Made by a program: the position numbers and the translations under genes | Shown here: positions 4,803-18,654 of the stretch, in pieces | How positions within the stretch are numbered: the first letter of the stretch is position 1 | How the letters are laid out: every line of letters begins with the position of its first letter | DNA from: a virus | Lineage: Duplodnaviria > Caudoviricetes | DNA length: 64,000 nucleotides | IMG/VR virus record: IMGVR_UViG_3300028804_000001 | Coordinates: 96,001-160,000 of that record | Reading direction: 5' to 3' (one strand) | Notes under the pieces: model-generated | Seen by the model: the letters and a program-made list of their open reading frames with translations, nothing else | Database searches by the model: none | What the model was told of the DNA's origin: nothing

Positions 4803-5411
4803 ATGTCAGATCAAGAAATCCTTAGTATTGTTAAATCCTGGTGGATCATTCCAATCTTTATTCTTTGGTCAGTATTAGTAGCTATAGCAAGTAGATACAT
4901 TGGATCCATTCTCGCTAGCATCCTGGATGCTTTCGTTTTTCTAGTGGATCTAATTGGTATGATTATTTTCGATATTAGACATCGAAGAGCAAGAAATAGA
5001 TTATCCAGATCTGTTTTAAATCAATTGGATTCAATAAGAAGAAGAGAATACGAAAGAAGAGAAAGATATACTTCTGTAACTGGAACGATGGGTTCAGATG
5101 GAGTTCACCATAGAAGAGAAACTGGAGGTGGTAGATATTCTGTAATAAGTGGAACTGGTGGAACTGGTGGAAATGGATTCTTGAATGAAGATCCGTTGGA
5201 TAGAATAAGACAGCAATCCTCTGGCCGACTTCTTACTTTTGAAGAAACTATATATAGTGAAACGAATAATGGATCAAGAAATAAAAGAAGAACTAAGCCA
5301 AAGGTTGAAATCTATGATGAGATTACAGAAGATGTAGTTATAGAAAATCCATCTACGTTAAAAGAGAAACTGTTAAACACCAGAACTAAGAATACTAAGA
5401 CAATAGGATAA
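4803..5411 (+). CDS. Hypothetical membrane protein
   Basis: Two hydrophobic N-terminal segments; charged/Gly-rich tail. Confidence 0.65.
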   Translation: MSDQEILSIVKSWWIIPIFILWSVLVAIASRYIGSILASILDAFVFLVDLIGMIIFDIRHRRARNRLSRSVLNQLDSIRRREYERRERYTSVTGTMGSDGVHHRRETGGGRYSVISGTGGTGGNGFLNEDPLDRIRQQSSGRLLTFEETIYSETNNGSRNKRRTKPKVEIYDEITEDVVIENPSTLKEKLLNTRTKNTKTIG

Positions 5412-5414
5412 AAT

Positions 5415-5756
5415 ATGAAAGTTGTATTCTCAAACAGAGAGCGCAAACTTCCTGGGTGGAAAAAGAAAGTAAAGGCTGCCAATGGCAATGCGGTATTTGT
5501 AGTTATAAACAGTCATCCGGATATAGATGTGTGGATAGATTGTAATTACGAGATGGAAAAAGATGTTAAGAAGGATATGCATCTTCCCTGGAATATTTCA
5601 GATCCTGTCCCAGAGGATCCGGATATTGTCCTCTATCCTGTATGGCCTATAGGATTAAATGGACTTATATATTTAATAATCCCTATTAATGAGAATATTG
5701 AGGATATCGGAAGCCAAATTCTACTTGCGGCCTCAAAGAAACCGGCTATCAATTGA
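5415..5756 (+). CDS. Hypothetical protein
   Basis: Tightly packed ORF in + operon. Confidence 0.6.
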   Translation: MKVVFSNRERKLPGWKKKVKAANGNAVFVVINSHPDIDVWIDCNYEMEKDVKKDMHLPWNISDPVPEDPDIVLYPVWPIGLNGLIYLIIPINENIEDIGSQILLAASKKPAIN

Positions 5757-5883
5757 TGAATGTTAGATCCTCTTATAGCAGCAGTAATAGTATTTTGCTG
5801 CTCGGCAGAGTTTATATGGTTATGTCTCATGCTTGCAATGCTAGAAGAGAAGGCGCTGTTCATACCAAAACAGAAGAAAAAGA

Positions 5884-7925: not shown

Positions 7926-8849
7926 ATGAATAAAAGAATACTTGTAACCGGCGGGAATGGATTTCTCGGATCCTATGTAGTTGATCGCCTCGAACAACTA
8001 GACCATAAGGTAGATCATCCTGATAGAAAAAGATGTAATCTTCTAGATGAGAAGAATCTCTACGACTATCTATCCTGGCTATCTCCAGATATAGTAATCC
8101 ATCTAGCTGCCGTTGTTGGAGGAATTGGAGCAAATAAAGAGAATCCTGGAAAGTTCTTCTATGAGAACATGCAGATGGGCATGAATATGATTCATGCTGC
8201 ATCTAGATTAGGTGTTGGAAAATTCGTATTTGTTGGAACTACCTGTTCCTATCCAAAATTTACTCCTGTCCCATTCAAAGAAACGGATATATGGAATGGC
8301 TACCCAGAAGAGACTAATGCACCATATGGAATTGCAAAGAAAGCACTTATTTCTATGGGCAATGCTTACCGGCAGCAATATGGATTGAACTTTATATCTC
8401 TATTGCCGGCTAATCTATATGGACCAAAAGATAACTTTGATCCAAGTGCAAGCCATGTCATTCCAGCACTGGTAAGAAAGTTTCAGGAAGCCAAAGATAA
8501 TAATTCTGAAGGTGTTACATTATGGGGAACTGGTTCAGCATCGAGAGAATTTCTATTCGTGGAAGATTGTGCCCGCGGGATCTGTCTAGCCACAGAAAGG
8601 TACGATAAAGAAGAATCGGTCAACCTTGGTTCAGGTAAAGAAATATCAATAAAGGAAGTTGCTACTATTATTGCCGAAGAGATTGGGTATTCTGGTATGA
8701 TCATATGGGATAGTTCAAAACCAGATGGTCAGCCCAGAAGATGCCTTGATACTAGCAGAGCTAAAGAGTTTGGCTTTGAAGCTAGTAAGGATTTTAGAAC
8801 CGGTGTAAGAGAAGTAATAGCCTATTGGAACCAGGTTAAATCTTCATGA
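7926..8849 (+). CDS. fcl: GDP-L-fucose synthase
   Basis: VTGGNGFLG, LAAVVGGIGAN, TCSYPK, YGIAK, NLYGP.DNF, SHVIPAL, SREFL, KPDGQPRR. Confidence 0.95.
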   Translation: MNKRILVTGGNGFLGSYVVDRLEQLDHKVDHPDRKRCNLLDEKNLYDYLSWLSPDIVIHLAAVVGGIGANKENPGKFFYENMQMGMNMIHAASRLGVGKFVFVGTTCSYPKFTPVPFKETDIWNGYPEETNAPYGIAKKALISMGNAYRQQYGLNFISLLPANLYGPKDNFDPSASHVIPALVRKFQEAKDNNSEGVTLWGTGSASREFLFVEDCARGICLATERYDKEESVNLGSGKEISIKEVATIIAEEIGYSGMIIWDSSKPDGQPRRCLDTSRAKEFGFEASKDFRTGVREVIAYWNQVKSS

Positions 8850-9962: not shown

Positions 9963-10445
9963 ATGGAAATAGAAGGCTACTTAATAGGCGCATCTATATA
10001 TACCTGCCTGGGTCTAGTAACAGAAACTATCTTTACATCAATTTGGAACTTTTTCTCCGACCATCAGAAGAATAATATATGGTTATTTCATGGGACTGTT
10101 TCTCTTCTTATGATTCCTGTATATTTTACAGGTTACTACTTTCTATCTGCTCCACTATCGCCTTTTCTTTCTAAATCTAACATCTATCTTACCTGCGTAA
10201 TTATAACACTGATGATATATACGGTTGAGTTCTCATGGGCATCTATCTATGACTTATTCAATATCCGACCATGGAACTATGACCATTCTACTACCCTGTT
10301 TGGGGTATATATAAGATTTGATATTCAGGGTAAGATAACAATGCTGTATCTTCCCTTCTGGCTTTTATTCTCTTTTATCACCTGGAAATATCACCTTTTG
10401 TTTGTGAATATATATGAAACATACATAAGGAAATACTGCATGTAA
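9963..10445 (+). CDS. Multi-pass membrane protein (CmpB/putative ABC permease-like)
   Basis: Four TM segments; GLVTETIFT, SLLMIPVY, VEF, PWNY, I.M.YLPFW. Confidence 0.65.
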   Translation: MEIEGYLIGASIYTCLGLVTETIFTSIWNFFSDHQKNNIWLFHGTVSLLMIPVYFTGYYFLSAPLSPFLSKSNIYLTCVIITLMIYTVEFSWASIYDLFNIRPWNYDHSTTLFGVYIRFDIQGKITMLYLPFWLLFSFITWKYHLLFVNIYETYIRKYCM

Positions 10446-12674: not shown

Positions 12675-12756
12675 GGGGCCTGGGTGGATTTGAACCACCG
12701 TTTCTTACAGATCTGGAGTACATCTCTGTAAGCGCATAACCGCTTGCATCAAGCCC
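12675..12756 (-). ncRNA. tRNA-like RNA with elongated anticodon arm
   Basis: Acceptor GGGCUUG/CAGGCCC; D-arm GCA-AGCGGUUA-UGC; 8-bp stem CUUACAGA/UCUGUAAG with 13-nt loop; T-arm GGUGG-UUCAAAU-CCACC. Confidence 0.7.
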
Positions 12757-12759
12757 ATT

Positions 12760-12810
12760 TGGTGCCCCATCTACGACTCGACGTAGACGATAGCTTAAAC
12801 TATATGGGGC
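12760..12810 (-). ncRNA. 51-nt minimal tRNA-like RNA with encoded ACCA 3' end
   Basis: GCCCCAU/AUGGGGC acceptor + ACCA; hairpin AUAG-UUUAAG-CUAU; T-like arm CUACG-UCGAGU-CGUAG. Confidence 0.65.
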
Positions 12811-12816
12811 GTTCTG

Positions 12817-12888
12817 TTAGCCATCAGGGGTTCGAACCCTGGACAAAGCCTTTTAGAGGGGCCTGCTCTACCACTGAGCTAATGGCTA
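12817..12888 (-). tRNA. Amber suppressor tRNA, anticodon CUA
   Basis: UAGCCAU UA GCUC AGUGGUA GAGC A GGCCC CU-CUA-AA AGGCU UUGUC CAGGG UUCGAAC CCCUG AUGGCUA A; canonical cloverleaf with U33 and A37. Confidence 0.9.
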
Positions 12889-12896
12889 ATATTCTT

Positions 12897-13226
12897 TTAA
12901 AGCTTCAACAGCTTGTATTCTTTAAACACTTTCCTCCTTTTCTTATTGGTAATTGGTTCACTTGCTATGGCAGTCATAGCATAGTCAAGATCCGAATCAA
13001 TAAAATAACGGTATCTAATACCATTATCATCTAGATTGCGCATTGCTTTAATCAGTTCTCGCTCGGATCCTATAGAAAGGACCACAGTGTGGAGATTGGT
13101 TACTGATTTGTAGAAGTGGTTTATAGCCTCACAGGCTGCGTGGATGGATTGAACACATTGCTGTTCCTTAGGCAGATCGCTTCGGATCAGAATGTAGATA
13201 TAAGGTTTATCTATCTAGTGTTTCAT
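12897..13226 (-). CDS. Peptidyl-tRNA hydrolase II (PTH2/PTRHD1-like) with in-frame TAG at codon 4
   Basis: MKH*IDKPYIYILIRSDLPKEQQCVQSIHAACEA...TVVLSIGSEREL...FIDSDLDYAMTAIASEP; YxxxRxDL, QxxHA, VVL..E.EL and D...TAIA..P match the PTH2 fold; ORF track calls only the last 62 aa. Confidence 0.8.
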
Positions 13227-13235
13227 GATGTAACT

Positions 13236-13265
13236 ATAGTAGCACAATATCTGGCGTACCGTCAA
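13236..13265 (-). promoter_or_regulatory. sigma70 promoter for the pth2/tRNA cassette
   Basis: TTGACG-18 nt-TACTAT with extended -10 TG; 9 nt before ATG 13226. Confidence 0.7.
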
Positions 13266-13344
13266 CAAAAAAAATTACTATTTATGCACATACTAACCAT
13301 TTCAAAATATTGACAGATACTTGGCAACAAGAGGATATAGCCAT

Positions 13345-13728
13345 ATGGAACAAGAAACAGGAGATACTATAGAGATTAAAGAAGCCCCTTCAAAGATACG
13401 TAAGTTTAAAAACATGAAAGAAGCTGTTCAGTATTATGGAGAACAGGGCCATACCCCTGAACAAATATCCAGGTTCACTGGATTTGATGAAGGGCATGTA
13501 CGTGCAACGATGAAAGAATTATCCCTGATAGAGGGTAATCTAGTAACTCAAGCACAAACATTAAAGCTAGTTGGACTTCTTCTAGATGAAAGTCTAACAT
13601 TTGAAGAGATCGGCCGGAAGTTTGGTATTACCAGACAGGCAGTAGAATCAGTTAAGAGGAAGGGTTTGGAGTTTGGGATTCCTTTCCCAGAAAGATCCAG
13701 TTCAACTGGAAAAAGGAGATTAAGATGA
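13345..13728 (+). CDS. HTH DNA-binding protein (sigma70 region 4-like)
   Basis: TPEQISRFTG and LTFEEIGRKFGITRQAVESV HTH motifs; GAGGA SD before ATG 13345. Confidence 0.7.
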   Translation: MEQETGDTIEIKEAPSKIRKFKNMKEAVQYYGEQGHTPEQISRFTGFDEGHVRATMKELSLIEGNLVTQAQTLKLVGLLLDESLTFEEIGRKFGITRQAVESVKRKGLEFGIPFPERSSSTGKRRLR

Positions 13729-14045
13729 GACTGCAGCAGGAAGAACGGATTAGGAGATCCATTAACGAAGTCTCCCATCTGTTATCCCCCCAAGACTTAA
13801 GATCTGTTCTGAACATTCCAGAAGAGATTAGAAAAGAAATAAACACCGTAAAGAAGATCAAAGGTAGAGATCTTACTGATGCCGAACTGGAGATTCTTGC
13901 GGAGTTTACAACAAGATCTATAGAGAAGCTTGCTGAAAGTGCCACTAAAGCAAAAGAGCAAGAACCAAACCTCTTCCAAAAAGCGGTTCGTTTTTTTGAT
14001 AAGTTCCGTTTATGGGTGGAGGAACAGTTTGGCAAAAATAGCTAA
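13725..14045 (+). CDS. Hypothetical protein
   Basis: ATGA overlap with HTH gene. Confidence 0.6.
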   Translation: MRLQQEERIRRSINEVSHLLSPQDLRSVLNIPEEIRKEINTVKKIKGRDLTDAELEILAEFTTRSIEKLAESATKAKEQEPNLFQKAVRFFDKFRLWVEEQFGKNS

Positions 14046-14655
14046 GAATGAAGCGTGTGTTATCATAGACTTTTGGAACTTCTCTCATTCTATATATAAA
14101 TTCTTAAAACAGGATTTAAAGCCTATAAAGGGCCAAACGAATGAAAATGCGCATAAGTCTAGTAAGATTAATTGGATAGCTGTTCCAAATATAATCGTAC
14201 AAGAATACTCTAAATCTAGTGGTAAGGGTTTGGTTCTAGAGCCTGCCAATGTTCACATACATCTAGCCTATTTCCAAAAGCATAGTAATGGCTTTATGGA
14301 AAAGCTTCTATATGCGATGGATATGGCGGGGTTCTCTATACATAATCACCCAACGGTTCTTAGAGAAACTAAGTGCGATGAATGTGGTTTAGTTAAACAA
14401 GAATACAAAGAGAAAGGTGTAGATGTATCTATTGCAGTCCAGATGCTAACTTCTAAATACCATTATATCTTTCTTCTTTCAGAAGATGCAGATCTGATAC
14501 CCGCGGTAACGGAAGTGCAAAAACATAATAAGAAAGTTATAAACGTATATACCTCTGGTAGAAATACATTTGAGGATATAAGTTTTAACGCAATGGATGC
14601 TCGTAAAATAATGGGCCGGCTGATATCTACTATACCTGGTAAGAATCTGGGATAA
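14029..14655 (+). CDS. NYN (LabA/DUF88, PIN-like) domain nuclease
   Basis: IIDFWNF, EKGVDVSIAVQM, LSEDADLIPAV; CxxC insert; GGAGG SD before TTG 14029. Confidence 0.85.
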   Translation: MAKIAKNEACVIIDFWNFSHSIYKFLKQDLKPIKGQTNENAHKSSKINWIAVPNIIVQEYSKSSGKGLVLEPANVHIHLAYFQKHSNGFMEKLLYAMDMAGFSIHNHPTVLRETKCDECGLVKQEYKEKGVDVSIAVQMLTSKYHYIFLLSEDADLIPAVTEVQKHNKKVINVYTSGRNTFEDISFNAMDARKIMGRLISTIPGKNLG

Positions 14656-14656
14656 T

Positions 14657-15316
14657 TTATCTCTGATTCTGCCACCAGGTCATATCTTTTCCCTTACCTG
14701 CATAGGTTGTGGATAAAGCGTGCCTAACTGTGATATGCTTAACCTCATCTATGTAGGTAAGCTGCCTTACCTTTTTAGATAAAGAAACGCACACCATTTT
14801 ATTATAGCCTAGATCTTCTCCAAAGGTATAAGCTTCTGGCCATCGAATATCCTTAAAGGATTTATGTAGAATATAGGATCCAACCGGGTATGGATTAAAG
14901 CTAGGTGTAATTATGTTAGCTAGTTCTGTAGTAGTCCTTATTGTTCTTCCAACGGCCCACATAAAATTATCAGGAACCATGTGATGCATATCATCTTCGG
15001 ATGGTTGGAAATATCTCTCAGAAGCAAAGAATACTGCAAGGGATCCACTAGTTAAGTTCTCTATCATACGTGAGCAGAAGAAGTTGTGAAGAACAATGTC
15101 ATCATCGTCTATGAAGTAAATATAGTCCCCAGTGGATCTGGCTAGAGCTATGTTTCTCTGAGCACCTGCGGATTTCTTTTCAGATATAACTATAGGGTTC
15201 TTGACTATCTCAATACCAGATGGGACCGCCAGGTTGTTTATGGCAGTCAGGCATCTTTTTAGATAATGTTCTCTTGGGGGTATTGTTGGAATAATGAAAT
15301 CAATCTGAATCTTCAT
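14657..15316 (-). CDS. Glycosyltransferase family 2
   Basis: IIPT, AQRNIAL, YIYFIDDDD, GEDL. Confidence 0.8.
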   Translation of the reverse strand: MKIQIDFIIPTIPPREHYLKRCLTAINNLAVPSGIEIVKNPIVISEKKSAGAQRNIALARSTGDYIYFIDDDDIVLHNFFCSRMIENLTSGSLAVFFASERYFQPSEDDMHHMVPDNFMWAVGRTIRTTTELANIITPSFNPYPVGSYILHKSFKDIRWPEAYTFGEDLGYNKMVCVSLSKKVRQLTYIDEVKHITVRHALSTTYAGKGKDMTWWQNQR

Positions 15317-16221
15317 TTAACTGGCAGTATGTTGTTATTAATGAATTCAGTCAACTCCGTTCTCCACCCACGCCGCATACTGTTAAGCCCAGTCTCAGCA
15401 TAGAATCTTTTAGTATCCATTACTGCATCTACTGGTCTCTTTGCTGGCCTGTTGTCACTAATGTAGCTAATAGGATATACCTTAACTGCTTTATCTATCT
15501 TATACTTAATACGCAGTGTTCTAACTATATGTTCTATGAACTCATGAGAAGATGCTTTTCCATCGCAAGATAAGTGATATGTTCCACACATTCTCTGGAA
15601 TACGCCAGCACCTCTGTTCATTATAGCAGCAATGTGTTTTGCTATATATTCGGTAGAAGTTGGGCAAACGAACCTATCTAAAAACCCGATAATCTTAGTA
15701 TCGGTGGTAATAGAACGTAATGTGGATGATAGTGTAGATGATGGGGATTCATCGTATATATCTCCAATCCTTATTACAACATGATCCTTACTTCTTGATA
15801 TTACTCCAGATTCTCCTCTTAATTTAGTCATCCCATAATAAGAAAGAGGCTTGGGAGTATCTCCTTCACTGTATGCTTTTCCAGAACTACCATCGAAAAC
15901 ATGATTGGTAGAAAAATGAAGAAGCTTAGCTTTAGATGTAGAGCATACATTGGCTAGAGTTGCTGGGAACTCAGAGTTGAGTTTTCTACATAAAGATCGA
16001 TCTTCTTCTTCGGCTTTGTCTAAATTGGTATAAGCTATACAGTTGATAACGATATTAACTTCATTAGTTTTAATGACTGATCTAAGTCTTACATCATCAA
16101 AAACATTCAACGATGCATGTGGAGGTGCAAGTAATATACTAGTATTAATGCCAGATAAAGCTCTGTGTATCTTCTGTCCTAATTTACCAGTTGAGCCAAG
16201 TAGTAATATTCTGGGTTTCAT
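15313..16221 (-). CDS. rmlD: dTDP-4-dehydrorhamnose reductase
   Basis: GSTGKLG, AYTNLDKAE, STNHVFDG, YGMTKLRGE, AKRP. Confidence 0.92.
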   Translation of the reverse strand: MKPRILLLGSTGKLGQKIHRALSGINTSILLAPPHASLNVFDDVRLRSVIKTNEVNIVINCIAYTNLDKAEEEDRSLCRKLNSEFPATLANVCSTSKAKLLHFSTNHVFDGSSGKAYSEGDTPKPLSYYGMTKLRGESGVISRSKDHVVIRIGDIYDESPSSTLSSTLRSITTDTKIIGFLDRFVCPTSTEYIAKHIAAIMNRGAGVFQRMCGTYHLSCDGKASSHEFIEHIVRTLRIKYKIDKAVKVYPISYISDNRPAKRPVDAVMDTKRFYAETGLNSMRRGWRTELTEFINNNILPVK

Positions 16222-16775
16222 AAACTTAAAAATGGACTATTCTTATCTTTCTCAGAGAGTATAAAATCATCTAGAGGAAGATTCTTATTCCATTCCAATC
16301 CTTTAATTGCTGGATCCCTATAGTTTATATACTTAGATCCGCTGGGTGAATATGGAGCATCTACAGTATAGGAAATAATAGTATTAGGCTCTAAAGCTAG
16401 AAAACCATGCGCATGATTTTCTGGTATCCATAATGCCTCATCGTGTTCTGCAGAGAGAACACAAGAAAAGGCATGCATGAAGAACTCGCCTTCATCCAGG
16501 CATATGGCAATATCTAGTATTGCGCCATGCAATACCTTAATTAGTTTATTCTGCCTGGGCTCCTGATAGTGGAATCCTCTGAACACATTTTTATGTGAGA
16601 GGCTTACATTCTCTATAAGAGGCCTTGCCATAAAGGTATTAACGGCCAAGGAGAAGTATTCAATAGGGGATAATCCCTGTAAGAAATATCCCCTATCGTC
16701 TCTGTATTTCTTAAGCTGCACCAGAGAAAATCCAGTGGGAGATATTTGATTAGTTCCTGCAACTTGTATACTCAT
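16218..16775 (-). CDS. rmlC: dTDP-4-dehydrorhamnose 3,5-epimerase
   Basis: DDRGYF, RGFHYQ, AHGFLAL, LSEKD. Confidence 0.92.
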   Translation of the reverse strand: MSIQVAGTNQISPTGFSLVQLKKYRDDRGYFLQGLSPIEYFSLAVNTFMARPLIENVSLSHKNVFRGFHYQEPRQNKLIKVLHGAILDIAICLDEGEFFMHAFSCVLSAEHDEALWIPENHAHGFLALEPNTIISYTVDAPYSPSGSKYINYRDPAIKGLEWNKNLPLDDFILSEKDKNSPFLSL

Positions 16776-17635
16776 AATGATCGTAAGAAATCAGCGTAGT
16801 TATTTTTTACGTTGCTGTACTGCTTAGTAATATACGCTGACATAGTTTTCTTCGAGACATAATCAAGTCTGATTGCAGCCTCCTCAGGAGATCCTACACA
16901 ATTGGAATCTAATTTGCCCATTGTTATATACTTCTCAACAAGAGCTATATTTTCTACCGTTCCGCAATCCTTCCAGAAGCATTCAGTAGGAAGCTTCTCG
17001 ACGTTACATATTTTCAAACCCAAGTATATATTGATAAGATCTACGATCTCGAGTTCATTTCTTTTAGAAGGTTTTAATCCTTTGGCAAAATGAGAAACGG
17101 TAGATGGGAATCTATAAAGGCCAGTTAATGCCTGATTTGATGGTGGGATTTTGGGCTTCTCTACTAGTTTATTCTTAACAGGATCATAAACTCCAAAGGC
17201 TTGTGGCTTAGGAATATACTTAGTAAAAGCAAATGCATTGAACTTATCTCCCATGAACTTCTTTTGATAATATTCAAAGGGGAAGTTATGAAAGAAGTTA
17301 TCACCAAGAAGTAGTGTAACTGGCTGATCCCCTATAAACGGCCGGCCAAGAATAAACGCTTCTGCTATTCCACGGGGGCTATCCTGGACAGAGTAATATA
17401 TGTTTATTCCCCACTGGTGCCCAGATCCAAGCAGATCTGCCATCCTTCCAGTATCCTGGGGAGTAGAAATGATTAAAATTTCTCGGATCCCAAGCTCCAT
17501 TAAGAAACGAAGTGGATAGTAAATCATCGGCTTCCCATTTATGGGAATAAGCTGCTTAGAAATAGACATTGTTGCTGGGTAAAGTCTGGTCCCAGAACCA
17601 CCAGCTAGTATTATACCACGGTCGGAGATTTCCAC
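16772..17635 (-). CDS. rmlA: Glucose-1-phosphate thymidylyltransferase
   Basis: GIILAGGSGTRLYP, SKQLIP, KPMIYYPL, LGDN, EKP, SKRNELEI. Confidence 0.95.
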   Translation of the reverse strand: MEISDRGIILAGGSGTRLYPATMSISKQLIPINGKPMIYYPLRFLMELGIREILIISTPQDTGRMADLLGSGHQWGINIYYSVQDSPRGIAEAFILGRPFIGDQPVTLLLGDNFFHNFPFEYYQKKFMGDKFNAFAFTKYIPKPQAFGVYDPVKNKLVEKPKIPPSNQALTGLYRFPSTVSHFAKGLKPSKRNELEIVDLINIYLGLKICNVEKLPTECFWKDCGTVENIALVEKYITMGKLDSNCVGSPEEAAIRLDYVSKKTMSAYITKQYSNVKNNYADFLRSL

Positions 17636-18654
17636 GTTCTACCCTCATTCATATACGACTGTTCTAACCATTCTTTATGATCAAGATACCAGCTAACAGT
17701 TTTATAGATGCCTTCTGAGAAACCCACTTGGAATCTCCAATCTACTGCATCTAGGGCCGAACGAGGATCTATGGAGTAAGCCATATCATGCCCAGGTCTA
17801 TCGATTATATAATCTATACCCAGGTTAGGCTTTCCCATTGCTCTTAGAATAATATCAACTACTTGATTATTAGTAATAGCTATGCCAGTTCCTATATTAA
17901 TAACAGTGCCAGGTTGCGCATTCTTTGCTACTTGATATATACATTGAACATTATCTTCAACATATAACCAATCCCTTGAATTCTTTCCATCTCCATAAAT
18001 CTGCGGCTGGATATCGTTCATTGCATATCTAATAGTTCTTGGTATCAGCTTTTCTGGATGTTGCCAAGGACCATAGTTATTGGAAGATCTAGTTACAGCT
18101 ATTGGGTACCTGTAAGTTTTGTAATAAGATCTAGCTATCAAATCTGCGGAAGTCTTACTCGCAGAATAAGGAGAGTTTGGGTAAAGAGCAGAATCTGAAG
18201 TAAATGGTTTATTGTTGTTATACTCTAAAGAGCCATAACTCTCATCAGTTCCTATTTGAATATGAAAGAAGTTCTTCTTATCTGCTTCATCTAGTGTGTT
18301 ATAATATTCTAGACCTGCTGCCATTACATTAGCAGCTCCCATGATATTAGTTTTAAAGAAACCACTCGGATCAACTATTGATCTATCTACGTGAGATTCG
18401 GCCGCACAATTAATTATACAGTTTGGCATATATTTCATTGCCTTTCTCATACTATCTAGATCATTAATATCATAGTTTAAAAATGTATACCGGTTAGGTA
18501 TAACCATGTTGTATTCGAATTCTTCTACTCCGTAGGCATCTGCGTCTTTATCGATATTGATTACATCTATACCATGTTGAATGAATTTTTTAATCAGGCT
18601 TCTACCTATAAATCCATGACCGCCAGTGATAATAACTCTTTCTATTTTTCTCAT
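17611..18654 (-). CDS. rmlB: dTDP-glucose 4,6-dehydratase
   Basis: TGGHGFIG, AAESHVDRSI, TDESYG, SPYSASK, NNYGPWQHPEKLIP, DRPGHD. Confidence 0.96.
   Translation of the reverse strand: MRKIERVIITGGHGFIGRSLIKKFIQHGIDVINIDKDADAYGVEEFEYNMVIPNRYTFLNYDINDLDSMRKAMKYMPNCIINCAAESHVDRSIVDPSGFFKTNIMGAANVMAAGLEYYNTLDEADKKNFFHIQIGTDESYGSLEYNNNKPFTSDSALYPNSPYSASKTSADLIARSYYKTYRYPIAVTRSSNNYGPWQHPEKLIPRTIRYAMNDIQPQIYGDGKNSRDWLYVEDNVQCIYQVAKNAQPGTVINIGTGIAITNNQVVDIILRAMGKPNLGIDYIIDRPGHDMAYSIDPRSALDAVDWRFQVGFSEGIYKTVSWYLDHKEWLEQSYMNEGRTWKSPTVV

Follow-up and report, generated by a model that had tools for sequence, protein, structure and literature searches.

A phage gene for a protein of the Pth2 fold carries an amber codon just behind its start codon, and a tRNA with the matching CUA anticodon is encoded just behind its stop codon. 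Comparative evidence supports well that this is a real and conserved block matched by a tRNA, and it is very likely that full-length translation of the gene depends on readthrough by that tRNA. Our best explanation overall, to which we give a probability of roughly 55%, is that the arrangement represents a sentinel-tRNA gate placed on enzymes that would recycle tRNA ends. The features concerned are collected in Table 1, with positions given relative to the window, i.e., the whole 64,000-nucleotide stretch of DNA that was analyzed, unless a locus of our comparative survey (L) is named.

Table 1. Features of the gated module, its surroundings and loci with other gates
Feature	Position	Strand	Remarks
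Sigma-70-like promoter (TTGACG, 18 nt, TG-extended TACTAT)	13236–13265	-	Near-leaderless mRNA; chance level alone
Default three-codon minigene Met-Lys-His, ending in the gate TAG	13215–13226	-	Next base A
Pth2-fold gene	12897–13226	-	109 aa on readthrough; R15, D17, Q26 and H29 invariant in the family
Amber suppressor-type tRNA, anticodon CUA	12817–12888	-	Rfam tRNA 59 bits; begins 8 nt after the gene stop
Mini-tRNA-like RNA, 51 nt (acceptor stem, two hairpins, ACCA end, no anticodon arm)	12760–12810	-	Fold z -4.0
tRNA-like RNA, anticodon stem of 8 bp or more	12675–12756	-	Loop varies by 3 nt between strains; from sequence and strain comparison
HTH gene of sigma70-region-4 type	13321–13728	+	Divergent from the gated operon
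NYN-domain RNase gene	13930–14655	+	Follows the HTH gene
Nucleotide-sugar genes	14657–18654 (-) and 7926–8849 (+)		rmlB/A/C/D-like, glycosyltransferase, epimerase
TAA gate with tRNA-UUA nearby	L184:416–694
TGA gate with tRNA-UCA in the same locus	L101:2491, 9965–10001
Four-base gates	L065:9404–10010; L177:1882–3200; L179:4421–4590; L214; L215; L218		Matching enlarged-loop tRNAs

The gated gene and its suppressor tRNA

On the minus strand, an ATG at 13226 is followed by two codons, a TAG at 13217–13215 and 105 open codons in the same frame, which ends in TAA at 12899–12897. Reading of this strand confirmed the in-frame TAG and the PTH2-like frame of 109 codons that had been proposed in the initial annotation. 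It also bore out that no ATG, GTG or TTG lies between the TAG and the conserved motifs, as the first standard start past the TAG is a GTG at 13085 (codon 48), downstream of both the YxYxxxRxD and the QxxH motif. Gene calling under code 11 returns only a 62-codon piece from that GTG, in which the QxxH helix and the first strand are both missing. The possibility raised earlier that the TAG is a read error is excluded, since an identical TAG is present in nine other assemblies of the same phage.

The promoter proposed for this gene fared less evenly. The match is at chance level by itself (5 found vs. 5.9 expected), but both of the closest relatives (L010 and L053) have a TTGAC box in the same placement, with a near-leaderless ATG behind it. 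We infer that the Pth2-like gene and the tRNA-CUA share one transcript.

The tRNA-CUA was likewise confirmed where the initial annotation had placed it. It has the anticodon loop CUCUAAA, a U1-A72 pair, A73, a short variable arm and no encoded CCA, and it matches the general tRNA model RF00005 over its full length, with the GG of the D-loop and the UUC of the T-loop present. The label of tRNA-Pyl given by ARAGORN was rejected because of this canonical class I body and full-length match; a tRNA-Pyl is recognized by a short D loop, a 3-nt variable loop and the lack of both GG and UUC. Among 50 distinct tRNA-CUA sequences the anticodon loop is fixed (CUCUAAA in 35), whereas N73 is A in 32, G in 8, U in 8 and C in 2, the first three pairs vary freely, and the acceptor stems have no common identity set. 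CCA is encoded in only 23 of the 50. Because the acceptor identity varies while the loop stays fixed, it seems unimportant which amino acid is inserted, and such indifference fits a gate at an N-terminus or in a loop. With regard to Gln-type charging, the U1-A72 pair of the window tRNA is Gln-like and its N73 is A, and no identity is shared among the 50 tRNAs. Gln was rejected as the inserted residue suggested by database proteins with a Q at this site, as the DNA has TAG and the Q is the reading of a gene caller.

Behind the suppressor lie two unusual RNAs, an anticodon-less mini-tRNA and a tRNA-like RNA with an oversized arm, which are possible decoys. An RNA similar to the latter comes after the tRNA-CUA in L010, and odd tRNA-like RNAs flank the module also in L054, L078 and L126 in addition to L010. 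Beside the tRNA-CUA genes of 20 loci, no known ribozymes or other Rfam RNAs were found except tRNA and tmRNA. Two tRNAs with the loop ACUCUAA, called Arg(UCU) by ARAGORN, occur near TAG-gated genes (L126:4372 and L172:10) and may be enlarged-loop amber readers.

The virus record to which the gene belongs is 225.6 kb long, follows code 11 and is 83% complete. Genome-wide recoding of TAG (code 15) was rejected, as ORFs of up to 3050 aa stay intact under code 11 and TAG terminates 31 of the 180 long genes of this phage, in agreement with the earlier statement that TAG is an ordinary stop elsewhere. A strong amber suppressor would carry a cost in this phage because those 31 genes end in TAG. Back-up stops after the TAG-ending genes are at no clearly shorter distance (median of 6 codons vs. 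8). A search across the phage genome found no second convincing early-TAG gene, extending to the whole record what had been claimed for the window. An HD partner, a CCA-adding enzyme and a release factor were not found in this genome at its 83% completeness. Divergent from the gated operon is an HTH gene followed by an NYN-domain RNase gene, and the window also contains nucleotide-sugar genes whose presence suggests virion or DNA glycosylation.

Conservation of the gate and changes in its type

The two nearest homologues (L010 and L053; 61–67% identical) both carry the TAG early in the gene and a tRNA-CUA shortly after its stop codon, and the early TAG is kept in homologues at 35–65% identity, including those of cultured phages. 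Searches of GenBank phages with tblastn returned full-length matches at places where the annotation has no gene or a truncated gene. The TAG is at codon 3 or 4 in phages Yen9-04, BF, Kaldavass, CBB, GAP32, ME3 and Arash and in a 595-kb metagenomic phage; cultured jumbo phages with the early TAG are BF, Yen9-04, CBB, GAP32, ME3, Arash and XacN1. The homologue search proposed in the initial annotation thus gave a positive outcome, with both the TAG and a tRNA-CUA present in 11 of 12 GenBank phage genomes; RaK2 has neither, and its gene is ungated.

We surveyed ~150 viral, metagenomic and genomic loci, a set that leans towards loci with an HD gene, for an ATG followed by up to four codons, a stop and a long frame. 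This pattern was found with TAG 183 times, with TAA 69 times and with TGA 75 times, and the excess of TAG is due to one cluster of 135 genes (72 Pth2-like, 57 HD and 6 fusions). No other family with the early-TAG pattern, i.e., no wider amber regulon, was found in this genome or in the ~150 loci.

Clustering of the Pth2-like homologues at 70% identity gave 55 clusters, of which 41 are TAG-gated and five are in modules with another gate. Five of the remaining nine look like second Pth2 paralogues, three have a TAG in the HD neighbor, and one is that of RaK2. The gate TAG is at codons 2–6 in these relatives, and 38 of the 41 gated clusters have no ATG, GTG or TTG ahead of the domain. An A directly follows the TAG in 36 of 41 gates vs. 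13 of 70 true TAG stops; the clusters are mutually related, so that the Fisher p-value overstates their independence. An A after an amber codon favors suppression. In 15 of the 41 gated clusters there is no tRNA-CUA in the available sequence, many of these contigs being short or partial. A pseudogene or read error beside an unrelated suppressor tRNA has nothing in its favor beyond the stop itself; against it are the TAG of the nine assemblies, the position and context kept in dozens of lineages and the intact downstream frame, and we regard its probability as practically nil.

It is also conceivable that ribosomes terminate at the minigene and re-initiate at an AUA or AUU just past the TAG, in which case the tRNA would not be needed. 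Directly behind the TAG, 21 of the 41 clusters have ATT and the window gene has ATA, and AUU is a weak start codon. Fourteen of the 41 clusters, though, have non-start codons at this position (AAC, AAT, ACC, ACT, GTT, GTC or GTA). Re-initiation is also at odds with the HD-domain partner gene, present in most relatives of the window module and absent from this genome, which is itself gated: in HD-Pth2 fusions (Xoo-sp13, XacN1 and RAS14), the TAG is located at the 5' end of the fusion, and in five phages the TAG of the HD gene falls within its domain, at codon 47, a placement that only readthrough can handle. Together with the joint changes of codon and anticodon described below, this makes re-initiation very improbable. 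The gating of HD genes also weakens the earlier description of the gene and tRNA as a self-contained switch.

The gate is not always an amber codon. Among loci that at first seemed ungated, one has a TAA gate and a tRNA-UUA nearby, and another a TGA gate and a tRNA-UCA. A TGA gate was also observed in L109, on a small contig fragment. Further loci of this group are without any in-frame start, and six of these adjoin a tRNA with an enlarged anticodon loop. In these six the anticodon has four bases complementary to the +1 entry site, which is one of only 4–12 candidates, giving the codon/anticodon pairs UAGG/CCUA (L065), UAGC/GCUA (L177, L214 and L218), UUGC/GCAA (L215) and CAUU/AAUG (L179). The same four-base word is present in both genes of four loci; in L214, L215 and L218, which are Pseudomonas plasmid or phage-like contigs, it is in the Pth2 and HD genes, and a short hairpin-like motif is shared after the gated genes. 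On a quickly built tree, the gate must have changed its type at least three times. No other result of the sequence comparison argues as strongly for decoding of the block by the tRNA as this co-variation of gate and anticodon, and together with the conserved pairing of gate and tRNA it supports the need for the neighboring tRNA expressed in the initial annotation.

The same observations bear on the idea, put forward in that annotation, that the gate senses the level or activity of RF1. Among the gates TAG clearly predominates, and there the tRNA competes directly with RF1. Termination at TGA, by contrast, depends on RF2, and UUGC and CAUU are sense-codon gates, served by tRNAs that match them, at which RF1 plays no part. 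Since the gates include TAA, TGA and four-base codons, RF1 is not the common factor of these modules, which would instead be the private tRNA. Sensing of RF1 is thereby weakened to a quite improbable reading.

Likely functions of the gated proteins

The readthrough protein scores 28.3 bits against Pfam PTH2 (PF01981; cut-off 23), its AF2 model has a pLDDT of 95.5, and Foldseek matches it to Pth2 structures at TM 0.72–0.77, with E-values down to 4e-7. The lysine of the Pth2 "GK" motif, which we take to be a member of the catalytic Lys-Asp-Thr triad (Lys of GKxxxQxxH), is Gln in the window protein and Lys in 10 of 83 relatives. Relative to Pth2 (PF01981; PDB 2zv3, 1wn2 and 1q7s), the protein thus has the fold and the RxD and QxxH motifs in common but is without the GK lysine, and it has DSD/EPD instead of the DAG-x-T segment. 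It reaches only 18.1 bits against the cut-off of 126 of the NCBIfam equivalog PRK04322 (Pth2). Pth catalysis in the clade of the window protein appears doubtful because of the replaced lysine and the score far under the equivalog cut-off, so that, of the PTH2 enzyme described initially, the fold stands while the activity is less certain. A clade with the canonical Pth2 motif is likewise gated (L096, L100, L177 and L214); this would tie the module to Pth2-type chemistry, without proving the activity of the window protein. A review of jumbo phages has noted phage PTH2 and proposed a role in ribosome rescue, with suppressors unmentioned (Iyer et al., PMC7824862). A second, ungated Pth2-like family with the motif QxGIQxxHA was observed near the module in L094, L145, L151 and L170.

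The model of the HD partner is most similar to the CC-adding enzyme of Aquifex (Z 12.9, rmsd 3.2, 156 residues aligned), a Z within the range that helical folds can reach by chance, and a sequence search agrees with this match; next comes the HD-like domain of GlyRS. These predicted similarities point to tRNA acceptor ends. Owing to the TAGs, records of Eneladusvirus and Mimasvirus, to which the genes with the TAG at codon 47 belong (L011–L015), split the HD gene in two and in many cases lack an annotated Pth2-like gene. TAG-gated HD genes also occur in bacterial sequences: in eight bins of Obscuribacterales/Melainabacteria type, a tRNA-CUA is <200 nt behind the gene, and L204–L213 (at about 5000–5800) comprise such bins and one gammaproteobacterial bin with a TAG-gated HD gene and tRNA-CUA. 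No Pth2-like gene was detected in the flanks of the L204–L213 genes.

A possible gauge of the tRNA pool and its known counterparts

We propose that the early TAG serves deliberately as a gate on translation and is read by the tRNA-CUA of the same transcript. Host enzymes would mature and charge this tRNA, the amino acid being of little matter, and the tRNA would compete with RF1 at codon 4, with the tripeptide made when RF1 wins and the Pth2-fold protein when the tRNA wins. As the codon would be needed by the module alone, the tRNA could serve as a sentinel, the output reporting how well a tRNA functions. For the gated Pth2-like proteins and the HD proteins of CC-adding-enzyme type, the most likely task would be to release or repair the 3' ends of tRNAs. 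That the gate is regulated by tRNA state has slightly better than even odds in our estimation.

The direction of such regulation is proposed tentatively as a negative feedback, in which tRNA block or depletion leads to more enzyme. When host defenses block or deplete bulk tRNA, the sentinel would gain on its competitors, more enzyme would be made and the pool would be restored. The competition would be with cognate tRNAs at sense four-base gates and over access to synthetase and EF-Tu at stop gates. As the competitor at a sense four-base gate is a host tRNA, depletion of host tRNA would raise the output there. Carrying this logic over to amber gates by way of synthetase and EF-Tu access is the weakest step, and it speaks against a sensor that the direct competitor at amber gates is RF1, which is unaffected by tRNA repair. 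With similar reserve, we suggest that this may be a widespread circuit of phages, megaplasmid-like elements and some bacteria, in which a private codon-tRNA pair (amber, ochre, opal or four-base) would gauge the tRNA pool and switch on rescue enzymes when host defenses block or deplete tRNAs. Bacterial Pth reverses tRNA acetylation by TacT, a finding that concerns Pth1 (PMC9241777), and a counter-defense role, as suggested in the initial annotation, would by analogy be plausible.

The gate could also be real and sense nothing, acting as a constitutive dimmer and timer that keeps a potentially harmful tRNA-end enzyme low and late. Expression would begin only once processing and charging of the phage tRNA are complete. 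A low dosage would be of use given that archaeal Pth2 can hydrolyze formyl-Met initiator tRNA, and all of the conservation data are compatible with this explanation. A weak ribosome-binding site would have been a cheaper solution, though, and a working private tRNA has stayed required through repeated swaps of codon type, at least three on the tree. We consider this explanation unlikely, although by no means negligible.

In a positive feedback or maturation loop, conversely, the gated enzymes would recycle or heal the sentinel tRNA itself, so that the module is a latch that goes off when tRNAs are destroyed; the substrates would be short peptidyl-tRNAs dropping off at codons 3–5 or a 3' end without CCA. 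The gate at codons 2–6 is in a region where drop-off of peptidyl-tRNA is frequent, the CCA is missing from more than half of the tRNA-CUA genes, and the HD protein resembles a CC-adding enzyme domain. Host Pth and CCA-adding enzymes normally do such work, however, and repair enzymes that are switched off upon damage are hard to explain. Such a loop seems improbable.

Returning to the sentinel-tRNA gate, its parts have counterparts in known systems. In prfB, the RF2 gene, an early in-frame stop is passed by a cis +1 frameshift and senses the gene's own product. There, as here, an early stop makes the synthesis of a translation factor hinge on competition at one codon, but the block here would be decoded by a dedicated trans-acting tRNA, and the frame after the TAG is that of the ATG. 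In the pyrrolysine and selenocysteine systems, too, certain genes contain a stop codon that is decoded by a dedicated tRNA; they differ from the canonical class I tRNA, the non-catalytic N-terminal codon and the unconserved acceptor identity found here. Frameshift suppressors of the laboratory and engineered quadruplet tRNAs (SufB2; PMC9094753) read four bases with an enlarged loop, as in the related loci; those are mutants or designs, whereas the gate in the window is an ordinary amber codon. In recoded phages (code 15/4), a suppressor tRNA expresses genes with in-frame stops, which has been proposed as regulation (Borges et al., bioRxiv 10.1101/2021.08.26.457843). In that work many structural and lysis genes are affected and one amino acid is fixed, in contrast to code 11, one or two tRNA-handling genes and a single early codon of exchangeable type in the present case. 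A phage tRNA-CUA is common to code 15 phages and the window, but in-frame TAGs in many genes are not found here.

A literature search, with most subscription journals outside its coverage, found no published description of the gate; in line with the initial annotation, which did not recognize a described system, a tRNA-locked gene has apparently not been reported previously. It would represent a mode of gene control that locks a tRNA-handling module by means of a single private pair of codon and tRNA, with stop and four-base codons exchangeable, and it offers a possible route for keeping suppressor tRNAs ahead of genome-wide recoding. Current annotations omit such genes or give them in truncated form. 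For the orphan amber suppressor tRNAs of jumbo phages with the standard code, the gated genes would be a concrete target, which had been missing for XacN1, whose authors found CUA tRNAs without a target gene (PMC5852040). In that phage, ORF364, the HD-Pth2 fusion, has ATG AAG TAG upstream of the annotated start and is a candidate target of the orphan tRNA-CUA.
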